Source of the DNA: an uncultured Pseudomonadales bacterium
Lineage (GTDB): Bacteria > Patescibacteriota > Microgenomatia > UBA1400 > PJMF01
NCBI GenBank assembly: GCA_964620965.1
Contig: CAZUHV010000002.1
Location: 48,863-112,862 of the forward strand
Direction of reading: 5' to 3'
Length of the DNA: 64,000 nucleotides
In this document: positions 2,072 through 64,000 of the stretch, in pieces
How the letters are laid out: the number at the start of each line of letters is the position of its first letter
Position numbering within the stretch: position 1 is the stretch's first letter
Notes under the pieces: generated by a model
Database searches by the model: none
Told to the model about the DNA's origin: nothing
The model's input: only the letters and a program-made list of their open reading frames with translations
Made by a program: the position numbers and the translations under genes

Positions 2072-3781
2072 ATGGGAAAAAAAATAAAATCTATCAACTG
2101 GCTTACTTTCTTAGAACAACACATGCTCATCATATTGAGCTCATTTTTGTTAGCTTTTATTCCACTATACCCAAAGCTTCCATTATTTGACCTTATTGAA
2201 GGATACATCGTAAGAGTACGACTAGAAGATTTTTTAATTGTATTTGCTATGGGTATTTACTTTTTGCAGGTACTTAAAAAGAAAATCAGTATCGAAACAC
2301 CTTTAACAAAAATTATATTTGCATATTCCATAATTGGCTTTTTATCTGTAATTTCTGGAATTTTTATTACTCATACCATTCCAACAACACAAGTTCATTT
2401 ACTTAAAAGCTTTTTACATTTCTTAAGATACATAGAATACTTTTCTCTATTTTTTTTACTGTATGCTGCAATTAAATCAAAAAGAGACGTACAAATCGCT
2501 TCTGCTGTAATTGTTGTCACAATGTTATTGGTTGGAATATATGGATTAGGACAAAAATATCTGTACTGGCCAGTGTATTCAACGATGAATAGAGAGTTTA
2601 GTAAAGGAATTGTGCTCTATCTTACAGAACATGCAAGGGTTCAATCAACCTTTGCCGGACACTATGACATGGCAGCGTATTTAGTCATCGTTTTACCTCT
2701 GGTTTTAGCATTTTTATTTCAAAAAAATCTCAAAAGAATCACCAGAGTTTTTTTGTGGAGTTCATATGTTCTTGGGCTTTTAATGATGATGCTGAGTGCT
2801 TCAAGAACTTCGTTGGCAGGATTGGTATTTGGATTGTTCCTGACAATCTTGATCTCTGCTTTGCTAAAACAAACTAATTCGGAAAAAATTGGGTTCTTTT
2901 TTAAACAATCAATTGTAAATGGACTCATTTTTACGGTACTGTTTACATTTTTTGGAAGTAACATGGCAGAACGTTTACTCCAAGTTGTCGAAAAATATCC
3001 ACAGGTAGAAACAATAAAAACTGGAATTGAAAACACAAAAATAGCGCTCCTTAATGGAATTCAAATTAATAACTATCTTTCTTTTGAGGTTGAAAAACCA
3101 GAGAATGGCATCTCCACAGATCAAGCAGCAGTCTTGGTTTCTTCGGATACACGACCAACTCCTGTCAAACCAAGTGATGTATATGTTGACGTGCCAGATC
3201 AAGTAAAAGTTGCAACCATTTCTGCAACAGGAGAAAAAACCTTTGTTGTGATAGAAGTGCCAAGAACGTATTCAGATAATGCACTCAAACACGGACTTTC
3301 GATGGCCATTAGACTAGACACACTTTGGCCACAAGCACTAGCTGGATTTTATAAAAATCCTCTTTTAGGCACAGGATACGCAACACTAACTAAGTCCCAA
3401 GTTGATGAATTTACAGAAGCCGACTCAACAGATAATAACTTCTTAAGAACACTCGGTGAAACTGGCTTATTAGGCGTGATTACCTTCTATGGTTCTATTG
3501 TTATTGCACTTTTGGCAAGTAAAAAAATACTCACAAGTAAACTTGAAGAAGATCGATTCAAAAAACTATTTGCCATTGGATACATTGGAGCAACTGTAGG
3601 ATTACTTATCAATGCAACTTTTATAGATGTATTTGCTGCTTCAAAGGTTGCATACACATATTGGGCTGTCACAGGAATACTTTTAGCTTATGCAAATATT
3701 AAAACTACACCCGCTGTAAAAACTGAAAAAATGGCTAACAAAAGAAAACGTAAAAAAGGTACTCAATTTAAAAACACATGA
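2072..3781 (+). CDS. O-antigen ligase/polymerase-like (Wzy_C family) polytopic membrane protein with a C-terminal extension
   Basis: More than 10 predicted TM helices. SASRTSLAG motif and an extracytoplasmic loop typical of the Wzy/WaaL family. Extra TM segments at the C-terminus. Confidence 0.55.
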   Translation: MGKKIKSINWLTFLEQHMLIILSSFLLAFIPLYPKLPLFDLIEGYIVRVRLEDFLIVFAMGIYFLQVLKKKISIETPLTKIIFAYSIIGFLSVISGIFITHTIPTTQVHLLKSFLHFLRYIEYFSLFFLLYAAIKSKRDVQIASAVIVVTMLLVGIYGLGQKYLYWPVYSTMNREFSKGIVLYLTEHARVQSTFAGHYDMAAYLVIVLPLVLAFLFQKNLKRITRVFLWSSYVLGLLMMMLSASRTSLAGLVFGLFLTILISALLKQTNSEKIGFFFKQSIVNGLIFTVLFTFFGSNMAERLLQVVEKYPQVETIKTGIENTKIALLNGIQINNYLSFEVEKPENGISTDQAAVLVSSDTRPTPVKPSDVYVDVPDQVKVATISATGEKTFVVIEVPRTYSDNALKHGLSMAIRLDTLWPQALAGFYKNPLLGTGYATLTKSQVDEFTEADSTDNNFLRTLGETGLLGVITFYGSIVIALLASKKILTSKLEEDRFKKLFAIGYIGATVGLLINATFIDVFAASKVAYTYWAVTGILLAYANIKTTPAVKTEKMANKRKRKKGTQFKNT

Positions 3782-5217
3782 AAAATATTTTAAAAAAATA
3801 TCCACTCCTTATTGTTTTAGCAGTTTTTGCATTCACACTCAGACTCTATAAAGTAAATACCCCGTTACTTGACTGGCACAGCTGGAGACAAGCCGATACT
3901 GCTTCTGTCACAAGAGAGTACACAAAAAAAGCACTTAATCCTTTGACCCCAACATATCATGATTTATCTAATATCCCTTCAGGAATGGATAACCCAAATG
4001 GCTATAGAATGGTGGAATTTCCTTTTTATAACATATTGGTTGCTGCAATACTCAAAGCTATTCCAGCACTCCCATTGGTACCAACAAGTAGAATTGTTTC
4101 AGCTCTTTTTTCTATTGGAACGCTTTTTTGTTTGTTTTTTCTTGCTAGAAGTTACTATGGTAAAAAAGTTGGGTACCTTACTGCGTTCTTTTTCGCAGTA
4201 TTGCCATATTCAGTGTATTATTCTAGGGTAATTTTGCCAGAGCCTATTATGGTTTTTTTCTCAACACTTTCTATTACTGCGTTTAGATTCTATATTAAAA
4301 AACCATCTGCTAAAACTTATTGGACTTCACTCATCTCACTCATGCTTGCGCTACTGCTCAAGCCATTTGTTGCATTTTTAATTCCTGTATATGCAGTTAT
4401 CTTATTCGAAGAAAGGAAATTAAAAGCTGTTCTCACAGATATAAGACTGTATGCATATGCAGTATTGGCAGTTATTCCTTTTATGCTTTGGAGATACTGG
4501 ATAGCAAAGTTCCCAGAGGGAATTCCTGCTTCTGACTGGCTTTTAAATGGAAACGGAATTCGCTTCAGACCAGCTTGGTTTAGGTGGTTGGGGTATGAAA
4601 GAATTACAAAACTAATTCTTGGATATGTTGGCGTCATTTTTCTACCAATTAGCGTTATAAATCAACTAAAGAATAAAAAACTACTCATACCTGCATGGTG
4701 GCTTGGTATTGGTGTTTACTTTGCAGTAATTGCAACTGGAAACGTTCAACATGACTACTATCAAGCAATTACAACCCCAATTATTGCACTCACACTTGGA
4801 CATGCAGTGCTTGTGTTGGATAACTTTATTACAAAGAAAACGAATGCGCTTGTTTCTATTGCAGTTGTTGGAACTCTGATTATTGCTATGCTTACTTTGT
4901 CGTATAACCAAGTAAAAGGCTATTATAATATTAACCATTCAGAATATGAAAAGGCTGGAAAAGCAGCAGATGAATTGCTACCAAAAGATGCAAAAGTAAT
5001 TGCTCCACAATATGGAGGAGACACAGCATATCTCTATCAAATTAACAGAAGTGGATGGCCACTTGGATACGATATAGATAAAAAAATTGAAATGGGAGCA
5101 ACATACTATGTTTCAACATCATATGATGAAGAAGCAAAAGAACTAGAAGAGAAATACATGATAGTAGAAAAAACAAATGACTTTATCATCATTGATCTAA
5201 CTAAAACTAGAGAATAA
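3778..5217 (+). CDS. GT-C fold glycosyltransferase, ArnT/PMT-like (GT39/GT83 family)
   Basis: N-terminal YKVNTPLLDWHSWRQADTASVTREY motif typical of PMT_2/ArnT-type undecaprenyl/dolichyl-phosphate sugar transferases. About 11 TM helices followed by a C-terminal soluble domain. Confidence 0.6.
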   Translation: MKNILKKYPLLIVLAVFAFTLRLYKVNTPLLDWHSWRQADTASVTREYTKKALNPLTPTYHDLSNIPSGMDNPNGYRMVEFPFYNILVAAILKAIPALPLVPTSRIVSALFSIGTLFCLFFLARSYYGKKVGYLTAFFFAVLPYSVYYSRVILPEPIMVFFSTLSITAFRFYIKKPSAKTYWTSLISLMLALLLKPFVAFLIPVYAVILFEERKLKAVLTDIRLYAYAVLAVIPFMLWRYWIAKFPEGIPASDWLLNGNGIRFRPAWFRWLGYERITKLILGYVGVIFLPISVINQLKNKKLLIPAWWLGIGVYFAVIATGNVQHDYYQAITTPIIALTLGHAVLVLDNFITKKTNALVSIAVVGTLIIAMLTLSYNQVKGYYNINHSEYEKAGKAADELLPKDAKVIAPQYGGDTAYLYQINRSGWPLGYDIDKKIEMGATYYVSTSYDEEAKELEEKYMIVEKTNDFIIIDLTKTRE

Positions 5218-5222
5218 CTTGT

Positions 5223-6416
5223 ATGAAAATTTTAATGCTTACCCCATATTTACCATATCCGTTACTTTCTGGTGGACAGATAAGAACATACAACTTGCTT
5301 AAAAAATTAGCAAATAAACATGAAGTCACTCTTTTTTCATTGATAAAAAGCGAAGAAGAAAAAGAATATATTCCAGAATTAAAAAAATACTGCTCAAAAG
5401 TACGAGTTTTTAAGCGTTCCGAAAAGCCATTTACTCTAAAAAATATTTTCAAAACAGCTTTTTCATCTTATCCATTCTTGGTTATTAGAAACCACGCTCC
5501 ACAAATCATTAGTGCTGTAGAAACAGAACTTCAGTCGGAAAAATATGACTTAATTCATGCCGAGACCTTTTACATGATGCCTCATATTCCAAAAACAAAC
5601 ATTCCAACTATTCTTGTTGAGCAAACAATTGAGTATTTGGGTTATGAAAGTTATGCTAAAAAAACTCCATTTTTCCTCAGACCTATACTGAACATAGATA
5701 TTGAAAAAATTAGAAGGTGGGAAAAATTTTACTGGAACGCCTGCGATACACTCATTGTTATGAGCGAGGAAGACAAAAAATACATCGGAAAAGAAATTGG
5801 TGATTCAAAAAAAATTGAAGTTGTTGCAAATGGGGTAGATACTAGCTGGTTTGAAGAAATTAAGAAAAAAGTAACAAAAGTTCCAACTATACTCTCTGTA
5901 GGCACTTTTAAGTGGCTCCCAAATGTTGAAGCAGTAAAATTCTTAGTTACGAAAGTGTGGCCACTTGTGAAAAAAGAGTTACCAAATGTGCAACTAAAAA
6001 TTGTTGGAAATGCACCAACCGAAGATGTCTATAAATACGAAAAAGATGATTCTACAATTACTGTTATCGGCAGAATTCCAGATATCAGAGATGCATTTGC
6101 AACATCAGATGTTTTAATGGCCCCAGTATTTAGCGGCAAAGGGACAAGATACAAAGTTTTAGAAGCTATGGCTTCTGGAACACCAATTGTTGCTACAACA
6201 ACTGCTGTGGAAGGTTTGGAAGTCGAAAATGGAGTTCATGTCATGACTAGCAATACCCCAGAAGGAATGGCAAAACTTGCTGTTGAGCTTCTGAACGACC
6301 AAGAAAAAAGAAAAAAAATGGCAATAAATGGCAAAAAATTTGTTAAAGAAAATTATGACTGGTCACTTATTTCGCACAAACTTGATATGATCTACCAAAG
6401 AATTGGAAGTAAATAA
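5223..6416 (+). CDS. glycosyltransferase family 4 (GT-B)
   Basis: MKILMLTPYLPYP...SGGQ N-terminus. C-terminal EAMASGTPIV...E motif of GT4/GT1 retaining glycosyltransferases. Confidence 0.75.
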   Translation: MKILMLTPYLPYPLLSGGQIRTYNLLKKLANKHEVTLFSLIKSEEEKEYIPELKKYCSKVRVFKRSEKPFTLKNIFKTAFSSYPFLVIRNHAPQIISAVETELQSEKYDLIHAETFYMMPHIPKTNIPTILVEQTIEYLGYESYAKKTPFFLRPILNIDIEKIRRWEKFYWNACDTLIVMSEEDKKYIGKEIGDSKKIEVVANGVDTSWFEEIKKKVTKVPTILSVGTFKWLPNVEAVKFLVTKVWPLVKKELPNVQLKIVGNAPTEDVYKYEKDDSTITVIGRIPDIRDAFATSDVLMAPVFSGKGTRYKVLEAMASGTPIVATTTAVEGLEVENGVHVMTSNTPEGMAKLAVELLNDQEKRKKMAINGKKFVKENYDWSLISHKLDMIYQRIGSK

Positions 6417-7948: not shown

Positions 7949-10900
7949 TTATTGGCAACTACTCGGATAGACATAAATGTTATTCGAGTGTGCATAGTAG
8001 GGCGTATTCAGCGCCGTTACCCATATTTCGTACTGAAGACTACAATCCAAACCAGTCACTGTGTACGTTTCAGTATTTGCAGGCAAGTACACAAAGAAAG
8101 TATCGGCAGATGTAGTGGCTTTGTAGCCGAGCCGATACTCTAGTTCAATGTTTGAATTATCATTCCACACTACCGAAATAGAGGTTGTCGTTGAGGAAGT
8201 CTTATGAAGATCTGTTGGGGCATTAGGGGTTGGACCTTCAACTGGATCACAGGCGTTTGTGTTTGCACTTATAAAGTTGCTTTCCGAGTAATACAGATTG
8301 CCGTTATCCCAGTTTATCACGCGCACTACAAAATTGTATTGTGTTTCGCACTCTAAACCAGAAACTGTGTAGCTCTCAGTATTCGCAGCAACTGTGGGAT
8401 TAAACCATTCCCCACCATCTGCTTGATACCAGACTTCAAAATTATCCTCAATCGTGGAGTTATCGTCCCACGCGACGGTAATTGAGTTTTGGCCTACAGT
8501 TGTTACATGAAGGCCTGAGGGAGCGTTGGGAGTTGGGCCTTCTTGAGGAGGCGGCGAGCCACCAGGTTTTACTACCAAAGGGAGATATATTGCACCATCC
8601 CAAACAGGTTCAACATAACAACTTGGTGTAGAAACCGCAACCAAGTTTGGTGTAGCAGAGTCACCCCAGTTGTTGAAGGCCTTCACCAAGTAATGATAGT
8701 CTGTTCCACAAGGAAGGTCATTGAAAGTCCATGACGTTGTATAGCGGCTATTGATAGTCGCAACCAACGCATAGAAATCATCATCCACATGTTCGTAGAT
8801 ATGATACCCTTGCGTAGAACTATCTGTGCTTTGTTCCCACTCCACAGTGATTGACTGGTTGTCATTTTCCTCTGCCGACATGACAAATTGGCCTAAGGCC
8901 AAGTTGCCATTGTTATTTGAATACCCCCATGCGCTTTGTGGCATTTCGGGGGAGCCATCACAGTATTCGTTGTCGAACACTGCGAATGAGGAAATAACAG
9001 AATCGCCTTCGCCAACACTGATTGAAACACCGTTATTCAAGGCGTCATTTCTAAAGGTTGTCATGCTTGTTGAAAAACATTTATCTCCACCCTGATAGTT
9101 AGCGTGTTCCCAAACCTTAATTGACCAACCTGCCTTAATCCGCAAACTGGAAATTTGATCATTCCAGTTTGTTCCACACCAATTTGTTAAATCAGCGGCA
9201 GATGTTGGACCATGTCCACCGCAATTGGAAAACTGCACGCCTTCGTCTTGGTAGACAATGTAGTCATGAGTCTCAATAAGGGGATCTTGGCAAAGATCAA
9301 AGTTAAACACTTCTAGACCAACAATCTGATACGGCCAGCCAGCCGCATTTAGATTAGGCACGCTGCGATTAAAGCAGAATGCCTGATTGACGCTTTGCCG
9401 TTTGTCAATTCGGTACAAAACTACTGAGCTACCCGTTTTCAAACTCAGACTACCAGCATAGAAATACTGGTGGTCGTGAAAACCAGTGTAGTAGCTTGGA
9501 CCAGAGCCTTGATATCCAGTCCCGCTAAAGAATTGAACGTTAGGTGGTTGGGTTGGATTGGGTGGATCAGTAGGACAGACATCCCTGTTATACACGAAAA
9601 CTGACTGAATTTTCGTCTGCCAGTCATTGTGATCTTGTAGGTTAGGAACATTTGAGTTCCAACATTCACTCATACCCTGCATGTTGTCATCACGATAAGT
9701 GATAACCGACCAACCATTGGGGATCTGCATACTATAGCCTTCAGCATTTGGCTCGTTGTCGAGCCCTACATCAAAGGTATATAGCATCGCACCTTCATAG
9801 TTAGGGTATTGGAAGAGCTTAACAGCTCCACCACTACCAGTTTGAGGACCAGGAGGAAGAGGTTGTGTATCTGGAGAAGGCGGCGTATCAGGTGAATTTG
9901 TCGGGCAACTCCCAGCAATTATTTTTACACTCCCAACAAAATTAGCAATGCTAAAATGTGTCCCTGGGTAGAAATCTTTGTTCATATCCCACAGGTCACC
10001 AGAATAACAGGCAGACATTGTTGGAGGTGATTGTGGATTGTAAATAATCACACTATAACCTGGTTGTATGTCCAACGAATACGGGGTAAAATTACCAATA
10101 TTAATTTCTTGGCCGACTTGATTAGTCAACCAAATATTACCATTGCAATGTGTTTGGTCAAACAGACGCAAAAGCTCACTACTATGGTTGACTGATGAGT
10201 TATCTATACAATTCGAGTACGATGAAGGGTCAATGGTTCTGTAAATCCATGATTTGTAATTTGGGACATTTTGAAAACCCATTGTTTCCACATATCCACA
10301 GAAAGGAGTGCTTCCTGTAGAAATAATGGCTCCTAAAATGGTTTGACCATTTTTCACATATACAAGTGGACCACCACTGTCACCCGGACAAGTTGACCTC
10401 CCACTAATAACGGCTGCAACAAATTTATCTTGATTTTCGCTTTGAGTTAAATTATTGAAACTTATCTCAAGCAAATCATTTGATGTCTGAATCAGACCGA
10501 TATTGCCGTAACCCATTGCAACAAATTGTTCATGATTATCAATGTAAGTTGAAATATCGTCTGGCGTGCCAATTTGTATTGGTGGTCTTGAAGAAGGTCT
10601 AGATAACTTCCATAAAGCTAAATCAGTTTCCCCGGGGTTTAAATCTCCACCACTAAATGTAATTGGTTCACCATTTAGTTGAATTCTTTCAACATTTCCA
10701 TTCCAAATATGATCTCCACCAATTATGGCTGTATATACGGCATCACTACCATATGTGTAAAAGGCACCACCTGAAGTTGATCTCCAACAATGATGTGCTG
10801 TTAAAATCCAATCAGGATGAATTAAAACTCCGCCACAGAATTTATCATTTGTATAAGATTCATTTGTAGCAGTTAATTCAACCATCCAAGGATACTTACC

Positions 10901-11044
10901 GTTAGCATTTGTGCCATTATGAATTGCGCTAATCTTTTGTGTTGGATTTAAAACCAACATCAAAAATATCGAACAAAAAACTAGAAATACATGTTTAGTT
11001 TTCACTTTATTAACCTTTGTTGACAGTAAGCAATTTACTGTCAA
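7949..11044 (-). CDS. secreted trypsin-like (S1) serine protease with beta/gamma-crystallin-like repeats and three C-terminal fibronectin type III domains
   Basis: N-terminal signal peptide (KVNKVKTKH + VFLVFCSIFLMLVL). Catalytic His in LTAHHC and Ser in GDSGGPL. A Pro-rich linker, then Greek-key-like YxxxNYxG repeats, then three ~90-aa FN3-like repeats (PTPNAPSGLHVTTVGQNSITVAWDDNS... and PTPNAPTDLHKTSSTTTSISVVWNDNS...). Apparent TTG start at 11042-11044. Confidence 0.8.
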   Translation of the reverse strand: MTVNCLLSTKVNKVKTKHVFLVFCSIFLMLVLNPTQKISAIHNGTNANGKYPWMVELTATNESYTNDKFCGGVLIHPDWILTAHHCWRSTSGGAFYTYGSDAVYTAIIGGDHIWNGNVERIQLNGEPITFSGGDLNPGETDLALWKLSRPSSRPPIQIGTPDDISTYIDNHEQFVAMGYGNIGLIQTSNDLLEISFNNLTQSENQDKFVAAVISGRSTCPGDSGGPLVYVKNGQTILGAIISTGSTPFCGYVETMGFQNVPNYKSWIYRTIDPSSYSNCIDNSSVNHSSELLRLFDQTHCNGNIWLTNQVGQEINIGNFTPYSLDIQPGYSVIIYNPQSPPTMSACYSGDLWDMNKDFYPGTHFSIANFVGSVKIIAGSCPTNSPDTPPSPDTQPLPPGPQTGSGGAVKLFQYPNYEGAMLYTFDVGLDNEPNAEGYSMQIPNGWSVITYRDDNMQGMSECWNSNVPNLQDHNDWQTKIQSVFVYNRDVCPTDPPNPTQPPNVQFFSGTGYQGSGPSYYTGFHDHQYFYAGSLSLKTGSSVVLYRIDKRQSVNQAFCFNRSVPNLNAAGWPYQIVGLEVFNFDLCQDPLIETHDYIVYQDEGVQFSNCGGHGPTSAADLTNWCGTNWNDQISSLRIKAGWSIKVWEHANYQGGDKCFSTSMTTFRNDALNNGVSISVGEGDSVISSFAVFDNEYCDGSPEMPQSAWGYSNNNGNLALGQFVMSAEENDNQSITVEWEQSTDSSTQGYHIYEHVDDDFYALVATINSRYTTSWTFNDLPCGTDYHYLVKAFNNWGDSATPNLVAVSTPSCYVEPVWDGAIYLPLVVKPGGSPPPQEGPTPNAPSGLHVTTVGQNSITVAWDDNSTIEDNFEVWYQADGGEWFNPTVAANTESYTVSGLECETQYNFVVRVINWDNGNLYYSESNFISANTNACDPVEGPTPNAPTDLHKTSSTTTSISVVWNDNSNIELEYRLGYKATTSADTFFVYLPANTETYTVTGLDCSLQYEIWVTALNTPYYAHSNNIYVYPSSCQ

Positions 11045-45731: not shown

Positions 45732-45802
45732 GTGGGCATGGTTCAGTGGTAGAACGCTTGCTTCCCAAGCAAGAGACGAGAGTTCGATTCTCTTTGCCCG
45801 CT
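45732..45802 (+). tRNA. tRNA-Gly (anticodon CCC)
   Basis: Manual fold. Acceptor GTGGGCA/TGCCCGC (one G-U), D arm GTTC-AGTGGTA-GAAC, anticodon arm CTTGC-TTCCCAA-GCAAG, T arm GAGAG-TTCGATT-CTCTT, discriminator T. No encoded CCA. Confidence 0.8.
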
Positions 45803-45817
45803 CATTTTTAAATAAAC

Positions 45818-55568: not shown

Positions 55569-56150
55569 CTAGTATTCTGCTGATTCAATCCAGCCGAACT
55601 CACTTGTAGGCCAGTATCTTAAAAATGCTTTACCAACAATATCCTCTTTGCCAATTGGACCCCAAACACGTGAGTCACTAGAGTACTCTCTGTTATCACC
55701 GCTCACAAAATACTCATTAGGACCCATTGTGACTGTTCTACCTTCAATAAATTTTCCTGGAAGAGTTTTAAAATCACTTGGAATGTATGTTTCAGCCAGT
55801 GCTTCTCCGTTTACGTAATATGCATTATCGTGTAAGGCAATTGTATCTCCAGGAACAGCTAGGATTCTCTTTATAAAATCACAACCTGTCCCAGTAGGGC
55901 AACTTGCTTCTTCTGGAGCATGAAACACAACAATGTCGCCACGTTGTGGCTCACCAGTTCTATACACAATTTTATTCGTTAATAGATAATCACCAGAGTT
56001 GAATGTAGGATACATAGATCTTCCATTCACTTGGTGTGGTTGCATGAAAAATAGATAGACAATCAAAAAAAATGAAGCACCAATAGTGAGCGTTTCCGCC
56101 AAATCTAAAAATAAACTACTAAATGATTTCAAGATATTTTTCATACTCAA
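55569..56150 (-). CDS. lepB: signal peptidase I
   Basis: GRSMYPTF (Ser box), GDNREYSSDSRVWGP. S26 family. Confidence 0.85.
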   Translation of the reverse strand: MSMKNILKSFSSLFLDLAETLTIGASFFLIVYLFFMQPHQVNGRSMYPTFNSGDYLLTNKIVYRTGEPQRGDIVVFHAPEEASCPTGTGCDFIKRILAVPGDTIALHDNAYYVNGEALAETYIPSDFKTLPGKFIEGRTVTMGPNEYFVSGDNREYSSDSRVWGPIGKEDIVGKAFLRYWPTSEFGWIESAEY

Positions 56151-56204
56151 GATTATGCTATTTCATAACTGGAGTTTCAAGCCCTAAACGTGCATAATAT
56201 AAGC

Positions 56205-57431
56205 ATGGGATACACCAAACATACGATTTCTGGTTTTAGTTGGCAGACAGTGCTTAAAGTCCTCACTATGGCTACAATACTGATTAAAACCTTTTTTCTT
56301 GCCAGAATCCTTACCCCTACCGACTTTGGACTTTTTGCGTTAATTGCGATTGCACTTGGCATTGCAGAAGCCACAACTGAAACAGGGGTTAACCTAACAA
56401 TCATTCAATCAAAACGATCTATCAAATACTTTATTGATACTGCTTGGGTAATTGCAATTATTCGAGGTTTCATCATTGGAATTATCATGGTGTTAATGGG
56501 TCTTATTATGAGTAAATTCTATAAAGAAGAATCATTAACCATTCTTGTTGCTATTGCAGCACTTGTTCCAATAGTAAAAGGATTTATCAATCCAAGTATT
56601 ATTTTGTTTCATAAAAACTTGGAATTTTTCAAAGATAGCGCGTTCAAATTTACAATTATCTTATTTGATGCAACTGTCGCCGTCATACTCGCACTCTTAT
56701 TTAAATCAGTCTCAGCATTGATTTTTGCTCTCATCTTAGGTGGTCTTTTTGAAGTACTGCTGAGTTTCTTGATATTCTCAGACAAACCAGTTTTTAACTA
56801 TATTCCAAGTAGAGCTAAGTTAATTTTTGCAAATGCTAAAGGCTTGACTATTTCAGCAGCACTTTCATATATCAACGAAAATATTGATGATTTTTTATTA
56901 GGAAAAATTATTGGAACCTTTTCTTTAGGGCTGTATCATAATGCATATAGTCTTGGTCACAAAACAAACTATGATTTTGCCAAGTCAGTAAATCATAGTA
57001 TTTTGCCTGTGTTCACAAAAATATCAGACGAAAAAAACAGGCTGAAAAAGGCATTTGTTAAATCACTTGTTGTGACTGCGCTCATTACTATTGGAGCTTC
57101 TATCCCACTGTTTATTGCTCCAAATCTCATTGTCTCGATTATTTTAGGCGAACAATGGCTCAGTATTGTTCCAAACCTGTACTTTTTTGTAATTGCAGGA
57201 ATTTTACAAAGTATTTCTATTATTTTTTATACTCTGTTTTATGTAAAGAAAAGATACTCAACTGTGAATTTTCACTTGCTTGTAACAATTGTAACTTTGG
57301 TTACATTGCTTTTATTATTACCTGCAAAATATGGTCTACAAGGTGCAGGAGTTGCCCTAGTTACTAGCAGATTGGTGAGCTTACCATTCCTGTTTTATCA
57401 AGCAATTATGTTATTTAAAAAATCTGAATAA
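56205..57431 (+). CDS. Wzx-like oligosaccharide flippase (polysaccharide biosynthesis protein, MOP superfamily)
   Basis: 12-14 TM helices and an N-terminal LIKTFFLARILTPTDFGLFALIAIALG typical of PST-family flippases. In-frame GTG at 56190 possible, ATG at 56205. Confidence 0.6.
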   Translation: MGYTKHTISGFSWQTVLKVLTMATILIKTFFLARILTPTDFGLFALIAIALGIAEATTETGVNLTIIQSKRSIKYFIDTAWVIAIIRGFIIGIIMVLMGLIMSKFYKEESLTILVAIAALVPIVKGFINPSIILFHKNLEFFKDSAFKFTIILFDATVAVILALLFKSVSALIFALILGGLFEVLLSFLIFSDKPVFNYIPSRAKLIFANAKGLTISAALSYINENIDDFLLGKIIGTFSLGLYHNAYSLGHKTNYDFAKSVNHSILPVFTKISDEKNRLKKAFVKSLVVTALITIGASIPLFIAPNLIVSIILGEQWLSIVPNLYFFVIAGILQSISIIFYTLFYVKKRYSTVNFHLLVTIVTLVTLLLLLPAKYGLQGAGVALVTSRLVSLPFLFYQAIMLFKKSE

Positions 57432-58174
57432 TGCCAATCAAAAATACAACTACCATAATTCTAACAAATCGTAATGACCAACGATTTCTTAATGCTTTGC
57501 AATCTGCGCAAATTACAGCATCCTGCATAGTTATAGACAATAATAGCCAAAATGAATGGGAAAAGTTAAGAAAAGAATTTAATTTTAAACTCATAAAGTA
57601 TCCTGAAAAAATAGCTGATTTTTCCAAAATAAAAAATACTGCTCTGGAAGAAGTAAAAACAGAATGGGTATTATTTTTAGATAGCGATGAGGTACTCTCT
57701 AAAAATGCTGAAGAATGTATTGAAAATGTAGTACAACAAAATCTTTTTGATGCAGTTAGCATAAAAAGGGTAGATTATTTTTTAGGTAAACCATTGTTAT
57801 ATGGAGAGGCTGGCTCAATGCCACTGATTCGATTATTTAAAACTAGCAAAGGAAAATTCAGAAGAAATATTCATGAAGTTGTTGAAACACAAGGTAAAAT
57901 TGGAGAAGCTGATTTTCAAATTTTACATTTTTCACATGAGTCAATCAAAAGTTTCCTAGAAAAAATAACTCTTTATTCACAAATTGAATCAAAAAATAAA
58001 AAAATATCAAAAAATGAAACAATTTTTCAAATGATTTTTTTTCCAATCGGAAAATTTATTTTAAATTATTTTTTGAAATTTGGATTTTTAGATGGATTTA
58101 GAGGACTAATATACGCAATAATTATGAGCTTGCACTCGTTTTTTGTTCGAATTTTTTATTATGAAAACCTTTAG
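57431..58174 (+). CDS. glycosyltransferase family 2
   Basis: TTIILTNRND...IVIDNNS, DSDE motif. C-terminal amphipathic/hydrophobic segment. Confidence 0.65.
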   Translation: MPIKNTTTIILTNRNDQRFLNALQSAQITASCIVIDNNSQNEWEKLRKEFNFKLIKYPEKIADFSKIKNTALEEVKTEWVLFLDSDEVLSKNAEECIENVVQQNLFDAVSIKRVDYFLGKPLLYGEAGSMPLIRLFKTSKGKFRRNIHEVVETQGKIGEADFQILHFSHESIKSFLEKITLYSQIESKNKKISKNETIFQMIFFPIGKFILNYFLKFGFLDGFRGLIYAIIMSLHSFFVRIFYYENL

Positions 58175-59360
58175 AAAAATAGCACTTTGGATTTTTGTTG
58201 CACTTTTAAGTCTAGGACAACTTCAAAGAATTGAGTTAGCAAACACCCCAACTGCAATTTATTTTCACGATGTTTTTATTATTTTTTGGATTTTTCACAT
58301 TTTTTTCACAAATCCTATAGCATTTGGCGAATATATTTTAGAATATTTTAAAAATAATAAAAAAATACAAATATTTATTTATATTACCGCTTTTTCTCTA
58401 ATTATTAATTTATTGCAAAATTTTGACAATATTTTAATTTTATATATCTGCAGATTAATAACATATGTACTATTTGGATTTTCACTAGCATTCTTAATTA
58501 AAGAAAAAAATATAGATTTGGAATATTTTAAATTTCAGATATTTTCTGTCGGATTATTCAGTTTATTTTTAGGTTTCTTACAATTCATCTTTATTAAAGA
58601 CACCAGATTTTTGGCGATTTTGGGATGGGATGATCACTATGCAAGATTAATTGGCCCATACTTTGATCCGGGATTTACCGGAATTATTTTTTTAATAACA
58701 CTTCTAGTTGGTTTAAGTAGTGAATATTTAAAAAATAAAAAATTACAACTATTTTTAATATTATTTTTTATTTGGGGAATAATATTAACATTCTCTCGAG
58801 CTAGTTACTTAGCAACTATTACAAGTTTTGCAACTTTTTTTCTTGTGAAAATAAAAAATCTCAAAAACCCAATTCTGTTTAAAAAAATTGGTGTTGGGAC
58901 ATTAGTATTTTTTCTTATGATACTACTTGCACCAAAACCATGGGGAGAAGGAGTGAATCTCTTAAGGACTTCAACTATTACTGCCAGAATTTCTGCAGTT
59001 ACACAACAAATACAAGAACTCAGCTTCAAAACAGTAGTTATTGGAAACGGGTTATTTTCTGAAAAAAATAGCCTTACTTACTCTATAAAGAATAATTCTG
59101 AAGTCAATATTCCAAGTCATTCAAGAGTCCCAGATAATATTTTCCTTAATATTTTTCTTTCAACCGGAATAGTTGGATTAATAATCTTTATTATTTTATT
59201 AAATGATTGGGGAAAAGCATTTCTTAAAAGAAATATTTATTTATTTGCAATTTTTGTTGGACTTTTAATACATACACAATTTAGCAACTCAGTCTTGCAA
59301 CCATTTGTTCTGCTACTATTTTTATCGGCACTATCTGTTCTACAAAAACCTACAAACTAA
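58143..59360 (+). CDS. O-antigen ligase/polymerase-like (Wzy) membrane protein
   Basis: About 11 TM helices. FSRASYLATI motif and a periplasmic loop. Confidence 0.5.
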   Translation: MFEFFIMKTFRKIALWIFVALLSLGQLQRIELANTPTAIYFHDVFIIFWIFHIFFTNPIAFGEYILEYFKNNKKIQIFIYITAFSLIINLLQNFDNILILYICRLITYVLFGFSLAFLIKEKNIDLEYFKFQIFSVGLFSLFLGFLQFIFIKDTRFLAILGWDDHYARLIGPYFDPGFTGIIFLITLLVGLSSEYLKNKKLQLFLILFFIWGIILTFSRASYLATITSFATFFLVKIKNLKNPILFKKIGVGTLVFFLMILLAPKPWGEGVNLLRTSTITARISAVTQQIQELSFKTVVIGNGLFSEKNSLTYSIKNNSEVNIPSHSRVPDNIFLNIFLSTGIVGLIIFIILLNDWGKAFLKRNIYLFAIFVGLLIHTQFSNSVLQPFVLLLFLSALSVLQKPTN

Positions 59361-60135
59361 AAGAGTAGGTAAGCTCAACTTTATTTTGATTTCCAGCTTT
59401 ATCTATAGCTTTAATCTCAATTTTATTTTCACCTTCTTCTAAATGATAGGTGTAACTAAATGTCCCGTCTTCCTTTGGAAAAACAACTCTTTCATTGATA
59501 TAGATTTTTGTGCCAACTTCATCTTTATCCGTATTACCTTTTATAGTAACAGACTGATTGGTTCTAGTTTCAAAGCTTGCACCATCTTCTGGTTCAATAT
59601 TTTCTATAGTTGGTGGTTTTGAATCAAAAAGAGTAGTGTAATCCTTTGTTGATGCCGACTCATTTTCTGCTTCATCAACACTATATGCATTTATTTTATT
59701 TTCACCTTGTTCTAAAGTTATTGGAACTTCAAATGAACCATCTTCACTTATCGTAACTTTATCTTGTTTGGAACCATTAATCACAAAGATAACAAAGCTC
59801 TCTGGCTCTCCATATCCGGATATTTTTAATTCAGCACTATTTGTTGCAGTCACTGGAGCAGATAAAATTGGAATTTGAGGCGGAATATCGTCAGTTTCTT
59901 GAAATGGAGTAGAGGAATCCAAAAAATTAGTCACAAAGTTAATAAAATTAGGAATTACAACAAAAATAAAAGTGAAAAAAATAACTACTGCCACACCAAT
60001 CATAACTACTGATTGTGAAAGTACCTTCTTTTTTTCTTTTCTAACTCTTCTTGAAGAAACTGGAGAATAACTCATAGTGGATCTCTCATTTTGTCTTCTA
60101 CTTTGAATTCTGCTTAATCTAGACATAACTGCCAA
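59350..60135 (-). CDS. bitopic membrane protein with a long basic N-terminal tail and two tandem Ig-like repeats
   Basis: RRQNERS...RRVRKEKKK cytoplasmic tail, one TM helix, then two ~70-aa repeats (DKVTISEDGSFEVPITLEQGENKINAYSVDEAEN / ERVVFPKEDGTFSYTYHLEEGENKIEIKAIDKAGN). Confidence 0.5.
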   Translation of the reverse strand: MAVMSRLSRIQSRRQNERSTMSYSPVSSRRVRKEKKKVLSQSVVMIGVAVVIFFTFIFVVIPNFINFVTNFLDSSTPFQETDDIPPQIPILSAPVTATNSAELKISGYGEPESFVIFVINGSKQDKVTISEDGSFEVPITLEQGENKINAYSVDEAENESASTKDYTTLFDSKPPTIENIEPEDGASFETRTNQSVTIKGNTDKDEVGTKIYINERVVFPKEDGTFSYTYHLEEGENKIEIKAIDKAGNQNKVELTYSFSL

Positions 60136-60190
60136 TAAGTATACAGTACTAACACTTTTGAGTGCAAGTTAGATACTTGAGAGTAAACTG

Positions 60191-60263
60191 AGCCGAAGGT
60201 GGGATTCGAACCCACGACCTATGGTTTACGATACCAGTGCTCTACCAGCTGAGCTACTTCGGC
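60191..60263 (-). tRNA. tRNA-Thr (anticodon CGU)
   Basis: Manual fold of the reverse complement: GCCGAAG acceptor, D arm GCTC-AGCTGGTA-GAGC, anticodon loop ATCGTAA (27:43 C·U mismatch), T arm GTGGG-TTCGAAT-CCCAC, discriminator U. Confidence 0.75.
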
Positions 60264-60740
60264 AACAAACAAAATAATATTCTATAAATGCAAAACAGTA
60301 TAGTGATTTTAACACAGAAGATAAAAAAATTGGGGCCCTTGCTCTTTCGAGTAGGTACCCCTTAATCCAGGAACTTTACGAAACCCGTCAGAGTTTTTTA
60401 TTCAACAATGACGAGGTAGGTGTGCCACTCTTGACACACCGAACACCATACGATCAATACGTAAATGGTCATCGGTTCACCTTTGATTGCTGCTTGGATT
60501 TATGCCCAAAGGCGGCATAGACAGCAATTCTAATATCACAAAAACATATGAACTTAGAATTGCTGCCTACTGTATCAACAAAGTGAAAAAATAATTGTAA
60601 AGTGCCTGAACTATTTTATAGTTCAATATAGAATTGGAGCCAAGCATTTTGGCAACTTTCTATACCAAATTATATTAGATTATATCATAATGTTAATTAT
60701 CTGTCAATATTATGGGATTAAAAATTTTAATGACTTATAC

Positions 60741-60769
60741 TTGACTTTTTGATAAAAATATCCTATAAT
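60741..60769 (+). promoter_or_regulatory. near-consensus sigma70 promoter (TTGACT-N17-TATAAT)
   Basis: Exact TTGACT at 60741-60746, 17-nt spacer, TATAAT at 60764-60769. A GGAGA SD sits 8 nt before the GTG at 60844. Confidence 0.65.
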
Positions 60770-60843
60770 ATATATTGTGAATATCAATTTTTTGATATTC
60801 GCATTTGCACCTTCAAATGTAACATACTGCAGGAGACAATGTC

Positions 60844-61359
60844 GTGAAACTGTTGACATCAGAAAAGTACTTTTTGTACTCCGTAGTTGTTTCTATCTTT
60901 GCGATAGTCATCAACTACACCCAAGGTTGGGATTTTACTCAACTTTGGTTCAAGTCTCCATTTACCACTGGTCTTGCATCAGTGGTTGGGTTTGTAATTC
61001 CAGCAGGAATTGCACTCAAAACTGTCAAAAAAGACAGTAAGGCAGGTAACTCAACTAAGATGCATCTTTTTAAGATGTCCATCTTTGAGGAACATATCTT
61101 TAGACTTGCGGCCGTTGTCGCAATTCAGATACTGCTTTCCTTAGAGTTACAGGCAGTAGAAATAGGAGTTGGAATCGCATTAATTGGACTGATTCAAACA
61201 GTATTGTTTATGGCAATACATCACAGAATCAGCATCATGCATGTGATTTATCCACTTTGCGTATGGCTTCCACTGGCTTGGTATGGAGGGTTGATTGCGG
61301 CTGTAATCAGCCACATATCAGCAAATCTCTTACCAAGACTATTGGTGGAAGGAGACTAA
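60844..61359 (+). CDS. CPBP family intramembrane glutamic endopeptidase (CAAX protease / Abi)
   Basis: Motif 1 EEHIFR, motif 2 FMAIHH, motif 3 HISANLL in TM helices. GTG start. Confidence 0.65.
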   Translation: MKLLTSEKYFLYSVVVSIFAIVINYTQGWDFTQLWFKSPFTTGLASVVGFVIPAGIALKTVKKDSKAGNSTKMHLFKMSIFEEHIFRLAAVVAIQILLSLELQAVEIGVGIALIGLIQTVLFMAIHHRISIMHVIYPLCVWLPLAWYGGLIAAVISHISANLLPRLLVEGD

Positions 61360-61375
61360 TTGGAAGGTTAATATA

Positions 61376-61404
61376 GCCCAGTCGGAAACGACTGGGCTTT
61401 TTTT
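61376..61404 (+). terminator. intrinsic terminator
   Basis: GCCCAGTCG-gaaa-CGACTGGGC 9-bp stem followed by T7. Confidence 0.7.
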
Positions 61405-61466
61405 GTTCCAAAAAAAACGCATCTCTGCGCCTTAATAAAAAATTAAATCCAAAATAAAACTTCTTG

Positions 61467-61539
61467 CGAGCCCGAACGGAATCGAACCGTCGATCTTCTC
61501 CGTGACAGGGAGACATGTTAACCGCTACACCACGGGCCC
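61467..61539 (-). tRNA. tRNA-Asp (anticodon GUC)
   Basis: Manual fold of the reverse complement: GGGCCCG acceptor, anticodon arm TCTCC-CTGTCAC-GGAGA, T arm GACGG-TTCGATT-CCGTT, discriminator G. Confidence 0.75.
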
Positions 61540-61655
61540 AACAATTAAATAAATCTTTTTTCAAAGAACAAAGGGAATTATACCCTAATAGACCTAGTTT
61601 TGCCAATAGTTATGTAGTATAGTACATACTAAGTAATTAAAGGAGACAGATACAT

Positions 61656-62243
61656 ATGAATATTTTCCTAATTTTAGTCGTTGTTGGCGTTGCAATTGCT
61701 GCCTATGTTATTGGTATTTACAACACACTACAAAGACTTAAAACCCAAATCAAGGCAAGCATTCAAGAAATTGGAAATCAATTAAAACGTCAGGCTTCCT
61801 TAATTCCTAACCTCGAGGCATCAGTCAAAGGAATGATGAAGCAAGAAAAAGGTATTTTCAAAATGCTTACCGATGCAAGAAAATCTATTGCAACTGCTCA
61901 AGAAACTCAAAAAGCAACAGATATCGAAGCCGCAATTGAACAAATCCAATCAATTGTTCCTCAGATTTCAATTGCTGTTGAAGATAATCCAGAACTCAAA
62001 AGCGATGCAACTGTTACAAAACTAATGAATGAACTCACAGATACTGCAGACAAACTCATGTATGCAAGACGAGCAGTTATTGATCTTTCACAAAACTTTA
62101 ATGAAAAACTAGTCACCTTCCCATCCAATATTGTTGCTGGAATCTTTGGATTTAAGGAAGAAAAAGGAATTGTAACTGCAATGACTGGTTCTCATGTCGA
62201 AGTTTCTGATGCAGACACAAAGGATGTTACAGTAGATCTCTAA
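61656..62243 (+). CDS. lemA: LemA family protein
   Basis: N-terminal TM helix plus NTLQRL...QASLIPNLEASVKG...LTDARKSI, conserved LemA motifs. Confidence 0.8.
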   Translation: MNIFLILVVVGVAIAAYVIGIYNTLQRLKTQIKASIQEIGNQLKRQASLIPNLEASVKGMMKQEKGIFKMLTDARKSIATAQETQKATDIEAAIEQIQSIVPQISIAVEDNPELKSDATVTKLMNELTDTADKLMYARRAVIDLSQNFNEKLVTFPSNIVAGIFGFKEEKGIVTAMTGSHVEVSDADTKDVTVDL

Positions 62244-62245
62244 AC

Positions 62246-63139
62246 ATGACACATTACGAGCTTGTTTCAAGCAATAAACAGAAATCTGGCATTGTTGTTG
62301 CATTGTTTATAGCATTTATTGCTTTTGCGACCTATGTTATGGCAATTGGGTTTGACTATCCCCTCAGTATTGTCGGAGTAGCATTTATTTTTTCAGGAAT
62401 CGCATCATTTGGATCATATTGGTATTCAGACAAAATTATTTTAGGAATTTCTGGAGCAAAAGAAGCAAACAGAACAGAATACTTTGATTTTTACACAATT
62501 GCAGAAAATTTAGCTGCATCTAAAAGGCTTCCAAAACCAAAGCTTTATGTCATCGAAGACTCCGCACCAAATGCATTCGCAACTGGAAGAGACCCAGAAC
62601 ATGCAGTCATTTGTTGTACAACGGGTATCTTACAAAAACTCAATAGGGCTGAACTAGAAGGCGTAATCGCACACGAACTTTCTCATATTGATAACTATGA
62701 CATCCGTTTAATGAGCATCGTAACAATCTTGGTTGGATTTGTGGCACTCCTTTCCGACTTTATTTTAAGAAGTACATTCTTGGGTGGTAAAAAAAATGAG
62801 AGAGAAAGCAGCCAATTACAGACAATTTTATTAATTGCTGGCATTATAATGGCAATACTTTCACCTATTATTGCTAAACTAATTCAATTAGCCATTTCTA
62901 GAAAAAGAGAATTCTTAGCAGACTCAAGTGCTGTTGCGATGACTAAAAACCCAGAAGGGCTAGCCCGTGCACTGGAAAAAATTTCTATGGATAGAGAACC
63001 ACTCGAAGCTGCAAATAATGCTACAGCTCATCTATATATTGCAAATCCACTCAAAAACACAAAGGGTCACCTTTTTTCTGGGCTTTTTATGACTCATCCA
63101 CCTGTAGAAGAACGTATCAAAGCCCTTCGAAGTTTATAA
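62246..63139 (+). CDS. htpX: M48-family zinc metalloprotease HtpX
   Basis: HELSHIDNYD (HExxH) plus 4 TM. Adjacent to lemA, a common pairing. Confidence 0.85.
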   Translation: MTHYELVSSNKQKSGIVVALFIAFIAFATYVMAIGFDYPLSIVGVAFIFSGIASFGSYWYSDKIILGISGAKEANRTEYFDFYTIAENLAASKRLPKPKLYVIEDSAPNAFATGRDPEHAVICCTTGILQKLNRAELEGVIAHELSHIDNYDIRLMSIVTILVGFVALLSDFILRSTFLGGKKNERESSQLQTILLIAGIIMAILSPIIAKLIQLAISRKREFLADSSAVAMTKNPEGLARALEKISMDREPLEAANNATAHLYIANPLKNTKGHLFSGLFMTHPPVEERIKALRSL

Positions 63140-63274
63140 TTTGCTTTTCAACTATAAAATCTGTGATATACTAACAACTGTATGATTCATACAAATACTT
63201 TTGCACAAGCACAAAATCAACAACAAAACATGTTGTAATTTTCGTGGCAAGTGATAAGTATAAAAATCTAGATT

Positions 63275-63298
63275 GCGAGCCACAAGCTCGCTTTTTTT
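63275..63298 (+). terminator. intrinsic terminator after htpX
   Basis: GCGAGC-cacaa-GCTCGC followed by T7. Confidence 0.6.
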
Positions 63299-63485
63299 AT
63301 TATTTTGGACCCGATCTTTTTCATCAAAAAAAGTCGAAGGTACAAAAAATGCAAGGCTCAGGCCCTCTCTTTTTGCAAAGCAAAAAGGAGCTGGCATGAA
63401 AGATGCAACTTGAATGAAATTCAAGTTGCAAAAAAGCCAAAAACTAAAAACCAAAAAAGGTATAAATTAGGTACAATATACACAC

Positions 63486-63797
63486 ATGAAAAATAAACAA
63501 ACTATAACAAAAGCACAAATTAAACACATCGCAAACTTGGCAAACATTCCTGTTTCCAATAGTGAACAAGAAAACCTTAAAAATGCTTTTGAAGAAACTC
63601 TAGAGACTATTTCCGAACTGCAATCAGTTGATGTCACCAATGTTGAGCCAACTCATCAGGTAACCGGTCTCACAAATGTGCTTCGGGAAGATACTGTCGA
63701 TGAAGACCACATGTTCACTCAAGAAGAAGCTTTGGCAAATGCTCCACAAACACATAATGGCTATATAGTAGTACCTAGAATTATCGAAGAAAAATAA
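63486..63797 (+). CDS. gatC: Asp-tRNA(Asn)/Glu-tRNA(Gln) amidotransferase subunit C
   Basis: ITKAQIKHIANLANIPVSNSEQENL...VDVTNVEPT GatC signature. About 100 aa. Confidence 0.75.
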   Translation: MKNKQTITKAQIKHIANLANIPVSNSEQENLKNAFEETLETISELQSVDVTNVEPTHQVTGLTNVLREDTVDEDHMFTQEEALANAPQTHNGYIVVPRIIEEK

Positions 63798-64000
63798 AAT
63801 GAAAAATACACTCACACTCAAACAGGCAATTGATAAGCTCAAAGCAAAGGAGCTAACCCACGAAGAACTATATAAAGATCTTGATGCAGTTGTTGCCGTT
63901 GAAAATAAAAAACTAAATGTTTACTTAACTCTAGACAAAGAAGCAGAAAAAAAATCTGGACACCTCCTAGATACTCCTCTTGCTGGCGTTCCTATTGCAG
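63797..64000 (+). CDS. gatA: Asp-tRNA(Asn)/Glu-tRNA(Gln) amidotransferase subunit A (5' partial; continues beyond the window)
   Basis: MKNTLTLKQAIDKLKAKELT...LDTPLAGVPIA amidase N-terminus. ATGA overlap with the gatC stop. Confidence 0.7.

Follow-up and report, generated by a model that had tools for sequence, protein, structure and literature searches.

We believe that a hairpin-dense segment of the Patescibacteria contig CAZUHV010000002.1 (assembly GCA_964620965.1), lying between a tRNA-Thr gene and the gene for a 171-residue protein, is best read as a messenger RNA of about 350 nucleotides (nt) for a hydrophobic peptide of 24 residues, held in a translationally locked state by its own predicted fold, and thus as a module like those of type I toxins, set in a variable island flanked by tRNA genes. 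Positions given here are those of the window, the whole 64,000-nt stretch of this contig that was analysed. We put the probability of this reading at roughly 0.52, slightly better than even, and would give about two thirds of that share to an actual toxin. The fold is conserved, a conserved open reading frame (ORF) with a Shine-Dalgarno (SD) sequence lies in its core, and the SD is predicted to be sequestered by base pairing. On this reading the unit would be transcribed and the ORF translated, its product would be toxic, a route of activation would open the lock, and an antitoxin would exist. The element is real and uncatalogued, and its design matches a known kind of system.

Extent and strand of the transcription unit

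The comparisons that follow rest on four distinct sequences from two lineages: the window, the loci L001 and L171, and the JGI locus L091. The covariance model R1, for which the window and a near-identical Logan contig served as input, matches L091 (LemA 86% identical) at E = 2.8e-10; it also matches L173 and L174, which carry identical copies of the L091 element, and L171, which holds a third allele of the window lineage and shares 94.7% identity with the window across 8.4 kb.

The segment is bracketed by tRNA-Thr(CGT) (60190-60263, minus strand) and the gene for the 171-residue protein (60844-61359, plus strand), and to judge from its signals it most likely forms the core of an independent, self-contained minus-strand gene that covers roughly 60672 to 60322, about 350 nt. 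An earlier note on the same DNA had described it as an ORF-free structured RNA of unknown class at 60270-60640, richer in GC than its flanks. The rise in GC is real and modest (0.39-0.42 over 60200-60600, against 0.22-0.34 in the adjoining flanks and about 0.35 in the whole window). The four hairpins listed in that note are all present where it placed them, including the one that runs, on the minus strand, into a stretch of seven U residues like an intrinsic terminator (Table 1). L091 has an equivalent terminator hairpin, also followed by U7, and the homology between the window and L091 stops at the U-run. At the other end this homology opens about 45 nt upstream of a transcription start that we would place near 60672, downstream of a sigma-70-type promoter that matches the consensus at 12 of 12 positions; its counterparts in L171 (TTGACT-16-TATAAT) and L091 (TTGACA-17-TACAAT) each match at 11 of 12.

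The unit delimited earlier is thus a real one with a misplaced end: because the promoter lies at 60707..60679, the unit is about 65 nt longer than the interval then given. The element TTGGCT-N17-TATAAA, formerly taken for the promoter, sits within the conserved leader hairpin, and its -10 hexamer reads TTAAAA in L091. Several helices contain G-U pairs where the plus strand would show A·C mismatches, and since these pairs, the promoter and the terminator all point to the minus strand, we read the RNA from that strand. Given these signals, the unit is probably transcribed.

A conserved fold with compensatory changes

The minus strand of 60320-60612 folds at -111.4 kcal/mol (z = -9.3), a stability that none of 200 shuffles equals, and the plus strand of the same segment gives z = -7.2; the whole transcript has a minimum free energy (MFE) of -127 kcal/mol (z = -8.7). 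Independent MFE folds of the four sequences yield one architecture (z from -8.7 to -9.6), in which a leader hairpin (P0) is followed by a closing helix between the 5' and 3' regions (P1), a long hairpin, three short helices and the terminator. In an alignment of the four sequences that was itself fitted to the structure, and whose model does not include P0, 97.6% of cells hold standard pairs and 11 pairs are changed on both sides, compared with 3.4±1.5 in shuffles, none of 500 of which reaches 11, and 0-2 in slid-partner controls. Double changes are found in P1 (16-19 bp; two pairs in L091), in the long hairpin (three), in helix C (four) and in helix D (one). The leader P0 is the best conserved part of the element, with 82% identity between the window and L091 as against 45% in the ORF; one pair of its inner stem reads C-G in the window, U-G in L171 and U-A in L091, and its three G-U pairs favour an RNA from the minus strand. 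The alleles of the small hairpin differ, in our own reading of the alignment, by an apparent inserted base pair. The long hairpin might serve as a site for RNase III.

The earlier note would have given up the structured unit had the segment proved unconserved in close relatives; a second lineage has in fact kept it, with compensatory changes in its pairs. These changes, together with the G-U pairs, indicate selection at the level of the RNA, which makes it very improbable that the segment is a functionless remnant of a decaying gene or a miniature mobile element akin to miniature inverted-repeat transposable elements. The inverted complementarity at the ends of such an element could be seen in P1, and the variable, tRNA-flanked hot spot and the narrow distribution would suit it; the promoter and terminator, however, are kept in both lineages, the flanking frames are rich in stops and hold no longer protein remnant, and the element is present once per locus, with no second copy in the window or in 1.86 Mb of related loci.

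Comparison with known RNA families

As the earlier note supposed, the RNA belongs to no catalogued family: Rfam 15 at its gathering thresholds finds nothing in the window but its three tRNAs, and a search of 60200-60800 at E <= 10 adds only noise. The likeness of the plus strand to transfer-messenger RNA (tmRNA), which the note had remarked on, is unsupported, because there is no match in Rfam and none by ARAGORN (three tRNAs, no tmRNA); the RNA, moreover, lies on the opposite strand. Nor is there an Rfam match to RNase P, signal recognition particle (SRP) or 6S RNA, and the element was not found at about 170 other syntenic loci of related species (the search covered the syntenic loci, and the element may lie elsewhere in those genomes), a pattern unlike that of a housekeeping RNA. 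Rfam likewise offers no cis-regulatory match that would speak for a riboswitch, T-box or attenuator leader, and the gene downstream differs, being tRNA-Thr in the window; in L091 the terminator leads to a convergent gene for a protein of 130 residues and not to a tRNA. The notion of a divergent housekeeping RNA (tmRNA, RNase P, SRP or 6S), or of a leader or attenuator for the downstream tRNA-Thr, draws on the adjoining tRNA genes, on a terminator just upstream of tRNA-Thr and on a size in the appropriate range; in the face of these results we regard it as effectively refuted. SRP-like and RNase P-like motifs can be picked out by eye, and they lie in a segment that L091 lacks or are plain helices; we discount them.

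A conserved small ORF in the core of the fold

The statement that the segment has no ORF above 25 codons is mechanically untrue, as ORFs of 26, 32 and 35 codons overlap it, and its description as an ORF-free non-coding RNA was probably wrong, a conserved 24-codon ORF with an SD in the core of the fold having been missed. Across the frames and strands of the four sequences, this sense-strand ORF is the only short one that is conserved: the 26-codon ORF (60647->60567) has ACG in place of ATG in L091, and the antisense ORFs vary in start and length and have no SD. Its product takes three forms, that of the window (Table 1), MTIYVYIVWCPVCEKFHTYLVIVE in L171 (4791→4717) and L001 (181-255, minus strand), and MYIIEVYLYYCIECHMWHLIYVIY in L091 (3924→3850). 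All three translations were confirmed; each starts at ATG, spans 24 codons and contains the motif CxxCxx[W/F]H, and the peptides are very hydrophobic, with a grand average of hydropathy (GRAVY) of 1.05-1.20. The indels that separate the alleles (+1, +1, +12 and +2 nt) all fall upstream of the ATG. In dinucleotide shuffles, an SD, an ATG and an ORF of at least 24 codons come together on the sense strand in 5.7% of cases for the window and 3.5% for L091; a chance ORF at the homologous position, of equal length and with a shared motif, should be much less likely than in single shuffles, by simple reasoning as opposed to a formal test.

None of the three peptides belongs to a Pfam or NCBIfam family. 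As an observation apart, the allele with CPVC (L001 and L171) weakly resembles the beta-strand and WCxxC region of DsbE-type thioredoxin folds (NCBIfam E = 0.05, not significant). A remnant of a thioredoxin gene was considered and rejected, since the surrounding frames are full of stops and the similarity to DsbE is not significant.

Predicted sequestration of the Shine-Dalgarno sequence

The ORF is preceded by AAGGUGA at 4-6 nt in the window lineage and by AAGGAGG at 6 nt in L091. The AGGUGA core is a contiguous complement of the canonical 3' end of 16S rRNA. The opposing anti-SD strand reads CACUUUG in the window and CUUCCUU in L091, where it is paired with AAGGAGG, and a comparison of the folds by hand finds two pairs of this stem changed on both sides. 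Partition-function calculations give the SD a mean probability of being unpaired of 0.02-0.08 in the full-length RNA of all four sequences, 0.02-0.14 in a nascent RNA that stops 15 nt beyond the AUG, and 0.02-0.23 once the 3' part is truncated. Only upon removal of the 5' part does it rise, to 0.26-0.70, and the SD is otherwise predicted to be more than 90% paired.

From this profile it would follow that the ORF is kept untranslated, and that it is opened by 5' processing or strand displacement and not by 3' trimming. The general pathway can be sketched as follows. The anti-SD tract would be transcribed about 100 nt ahead of the SD and would then pair with it, so that the SD would be buried as it emerges. 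The P1 helix would enclose the ORF by tying the stretch just past the leader hairpin to the one that precedes the terminator, while the highly conserved leader hairpin would stand ahead of all other elements. Translation would be off by default, both during and after transcription, and would require the 5' part to be removed or displaced, for example by cleavage in the long hairpin. An antagonist RNA would probably target the conserved leader.

Table 1. Features of the element, in the order in which the minus strand would be read.
Feature	Position	Strand	Description
Sigma-70-type promoter	60679..60707	-	TTGACA-17-TGnTATAAT; 12/12 consensus match, extended -10
Whole predicted transcript	60322..60672	-	About 350 nt; both ends placed from promoter, terminator and homology limits
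Leader hairpin P0	60622..60669	-	12-bp outer stem and 5-bp inner stem GCCAA/UUGGC; predicted in all four sequences
Closing helix P1, 5' strand	60597..60613	-	Pairs with 60363-60379
Anti-SD strand	60574..60587	-	UUCACUUUGUUGAU; pairs with SD strand 60476-60487; stem encloses the long hairpin
Long hairpin	60517..60570	-	Near-perfect, 17+5 bp (25 bp in L091); nested between anti-SD and SD
Small hairpin	60489..60516	-	Window lineage only; absent from L091
Shine-Dalgarno sequence	60477..60483	-	AAGGUGA, 4 nt before AUG; in 3' strand of anti-SD helix
Small ORF	60398..60472	-	24 codons and UAA, MTIYVLIVWCSVCQEWHTYLVIVE; start, length and motif conserved
Helices B, C and D	60383..60473	-	B 60441-60473, C 60419-60440, D 60383-60417; overlap the ORF, stop codon in loop of D
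Closing helix P1, 3' strand	60363..60379	-	Pairs with 60597-60613
Intrinsic terminator	60323..60361	-	Hairpin 60332-60361 and U7 60323-60329

Weighing a type I toxin-like module against other readings

The mRNAs of type I toxins are 150-400 nt long, encode peptides of 20-60 residues, and combine an SD/anti-SD pairing, a 5' stem-loop, a long-distance interaction between the 5' and 3' regions and a terminator (PMC8594479). The element in the window falls within these bounds with its transcript of about 350 nt and its 24 hydrophobic codons, and every one of the structural elements appears, covarying, in the predicted folds of all four sequences. It is because a 5' stem-loop, a 5'-3' helix, an SD/anti-SD stem, a small hydrophobic ORF and a terminator occur together that we read it as type I-toxin-like. 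Such a reading also suits the very narrow distribution and the setting in an island, which in L091 holds an AbiEii/DUF6922 pair as well.

The foremost rival, which we hold to be unlikely but to deserve the most serious attention, is a truly non-coding, lineage-restricted structured RNA, be it a ribonucleoprotein scaffold, a regulator or something ribozyme-like, in which the ORF and the purine-rich strand that we call the SD are by-products of helices. The strong, conserved fold carries compensatory changes even within the ORF, where those of helix C alter amino acids; no part is better conserved than the leader, which is non-coding like about 79% of the transcript, single-sequence shuffles produce an SD and ORF in about 4-6% of cases, and the genome makes little use of SD sequences. 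What a non-coding RNA leaves unaccounted for is that the ATG, the spacing of the SD, the length of the ORF, its stop and the Cys, Cys, aromatic and His residues are all kept at 45% nucleotide identity, and that the indels avoid the ORF. Without translation it is hard to see why a helix strand should read AAGGAGG or AGGUGA just 4-6 nt ahead of a conserved ATG, and Rfam holds no family to which such an RNA would belong.

The same evidence for coding and for sequestration of the SD would serve equally well a small non-toxic peptide, membrane-bound, redox-active or metal-binding and with a WCxxC-like motif, whose 5' untranslated region (UTR) folds into a thermosensor, a ligand sensor or a processing switch and needs no antitoxin. 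No antitoxin was in fact found at the locus, and the CxxC..H motif, along with the faint DsbE likeness of the CPVC allele, lends this possibility some colour. It is made doubtful by the lack of a conserved partner gene, the divergent neighbour being a CPBP-like orphan in the window and an HNH-like gene in L091, and by the narrow distribution and island setting, which are more in keeping with an addiction or defence-type element than with a housekeeping micropeptide.

Several points weigh against a type I-toxin-like module itself. No convincing antitoxin was found at the locus, and neither the window nor the L091 locus has a strong, conserved antisense promoter. The sole promoter-like antisense site shared in position is weak, reading TCAACA-17-TAAAGT (8/12) in the window (60575..60603, plus strand) and ATGATA-16-TATAAT (10/12) in L091; speculatively, it could drive an RNA some 70 nt long and antisense to the conserved leader, which would explain the conservation of the latter. 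Searches of Pfam, NCBIfam and Rfam at E <= 10 reveal no homology to toxin or antitoxin families (Hok, Ldr, Ibs, TisB, Fst, TxpA; Rfam antitoxin RNAs), and the peptide matches no known toxin family. A charged tail, frequent in type I toxins, is missing from it, and its CxxC..H motif is atypical for them. The helices over the ORF covary at the cost of amino-acid identity, and RNA structure alone might explain the conservation, with the ORF tolerated and not selected. Use of SD sequences is sparse in the genome, at about 8 of 49 large ORFs by a crude count that takes the first ATG as the start. The sequences compared are only four, from two lineages, and the covariation counts come from a structure-fitted alignment. 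Transcription of the unit, finally, is predicted from its sequence.

As a separate observation on the same large ORFs, many of the 49 carry a TATAAT-like box no more than about 20 nt from the ATG, and leaderless or short-leader mRNAs may accordingly be frequent in this genome.

Likeness to known systems

Systems of the tisB/IstR-1 type are activated by 5' processing, and their antagonist RNA binds the 5' UTR. The window RNA resembles tisB/IstR-1, zorO/OrzO, dinQ/AgrB and shoB/OhsC in its transcript of about 350 nt, its 20-30 hydrophobic residues, its base-paired SD and a primary transcript that is inert (here by prediction); as in the tisB type, only 5' truncation frees the SD in silico. It differs from them in that no antitoxin RNA was identified at the locus and no sequence or family match was found, in the CxxC..H motif of its peptide, and in its host, a Patescibacteria genome.

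Dual-function RNAs such as RNAIII/hld of S. aureus, SgrS/SgrT and SR1/SR1P are multi-hairpin RNAs with 5'-3' pairing and an embedded ORF of about 25 codons. The element shares this long multi-hairpin form, the pairing between its ends and an ORF of that size, without homology to any of them. A dual-function RNA without a described relative, that is, a new, lineage-specific multi-helix functional RNA (a ribonucleoprotein scaffold, defence-related or ribozyme-like) that also carries a translated micro-ORF, is conceivable, and we give it a low probability. Among large structured RNAs, GOLLD, ROOL, raiA and HEARO are comparable in being ORF-poor, strongly folded, located near tRNAs in variable regions and patchily distributed, whereas the window RNA is smaller (core about 250 nt), has no Rfam match, and possesses a conserved SD and ORF.

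The putative locked mRNA shares several features with hok/Sok and aapA1/IsoA1: a 5'-3' closing helix around the ORF, hairpins both inside the coding region and beside it, an SD hidden by pairing, a terminator and a stem-loop at the 5' end (PMC5416894; PMC8594479). The lock of hok and aapA1, however, is released by 3' trimming, while the SD of the window RNA is predicted to stay paired after 3' truncation, and the window has no cis-antisense gene with a good promoter.

Alleles and recombination

Apart from a patch of about 110 nt with 17 mismatches and four indels, the window is 99.8% identical to L001-L004. The two ORF alleles differ at five of 24 residues and by three synonymous changes, and several of these allelic changes are also compensatory in helix C. 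L171 is a mosaic: its small hairpin and ORF resemble those of L001, and its sequence around the SD resembles the window. Along the whole 8.4 kb of its alignment with window 55679-64000 it alternates between blocks of 0% (for example 59300-60200) and of 5-17% divergence, which indicates that homologous recombination is frequent in this population. Ordinary recombination between diverged alleles explains the patch, and therefore no dedicated mechanism of diversification is needed; the mosaic and the block-wise divergence led us to reject a specialised hypervariable patch, whether like a diversity-generating retroelement or guide-like as in bridge RNAs and omega RNAs.

Distribution and neighbourhood

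Homologues are confined to two closely related Patescibacteria lineages, always in the variable island between tRNA-Asp and tRNA-Thr. Among the 80 GTDB species loci, R1 has no match, and loci whose LemA identity is 84%, 83% or lower do not carry the element. A broader model, R2, run over about 1.8 Mb of syntenic Patescibacteria loci, finds nothing beyond L091, L173, L174 and L171, and nhmmer, with a single sequence or a profile, detects no homologue outside the two lineages in any of the loci. No homologue was returned by blastn against phage and plasmid collections or by exact and degenerate patterns in IMG/VR, and an exact 20-mer has no match in the JGI metagenomes.

In relatives (loci L012-L090), a common layout places tRNA-Asp, tRNA-Gly(CCC) and tRNA-Thr(CGT) upstream of lemA-htpX-gatCAB, with inserts of 0.1-5 kb and differing genes between the tRNAs. 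It is because these inserts vary that we regard the region, window 60190-61539, as an insertion hot spot. The tRNA-Gly(CCC) of the window stands elsewhere (45732-45803, plus strand). No convincing direct repeat of a tRNA 3' end, which would mark an integrated element, was found at the locus.

The genes around the element differ between the lineages. Its divergent neighbour in the window, the 171-residue protein, is a membrane protein encoded at 40-43% GC, for which there is no Pfam family and, among 5.8 billion proteins, no homologue but itself, so that it cannot lead to other loci. By eye, it shows motifs like those of the CPBP (Abi/CAAX-protease) family, EExxxR, FxxxH and HxxxN. L091 has in this place a gene for an HNH-like protein of 164 residues, beyond which its island (3381-5797, also present in L173 and L174) carries the AbiEii/DUF6922 toxin-antitoxin pair. 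The 130-residue protein of L091, whose gene lies downstream of the terminator where the window has tRNA-Thr, contains a nucleotidyltransferase-like GS..DxD motif, again read by eye. The window is without these island genes, namely the AbiEii-like, DUF6922, 130-residue and 164-residue HNH-like ones.

Implications for Patescibacteria

Bacteria of the candidate phyla radiation have tiny genomes, and to our knowledge almost nothing has been reported on their small RNAs or micro-proteins; a full-text literature search for papers naming Patescibacteria together with type I toxin-antitoxin systems returned none. If our reading is correct, RNA-locked small-toxin modules exist in these episymbionts, in tRNA-flanked variable islands beside toxin-antitoxin and defence genes, and the element would be the first type I toxin-antitoxin-like case for Patescibacteria. 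Since only two closely related lineages have the element, its practical reach is limited. For scans of genomes it carries a more general caution: a hairpin-dense, seemingly ORF-free segment can be the folded mRNA of a peptide below the thresholds of gene callers.

Other features of the window

The intergenic region between htpX and gatC (63140-63485, 346 nt) is also dense in hairpins (z = -4.9 for the minus and -5.7 for the plus strand), with a 12-bp perfect hairpin and an apparent htpX terminator (GCGAGCC-ACA-AGCUCGC and U7, plus strand). R2 matches it over its full length without significance (E = 1.9). A minus-strand ORF of 100 codons overlaps the region, and in L173 a gene for a protein of 133 residues is called there.

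At some distance from the element, an ORF of 1031 residues (7949-11044, minus strand) appears by eye to encode a trypsin-like, secreted serine protease whose C-terminal domains are repeated. The ORF lies in the only stretch of the window at 44-45% GC (8001-10000, against about 35% elsewhere), and it may have been acquired horizontally.

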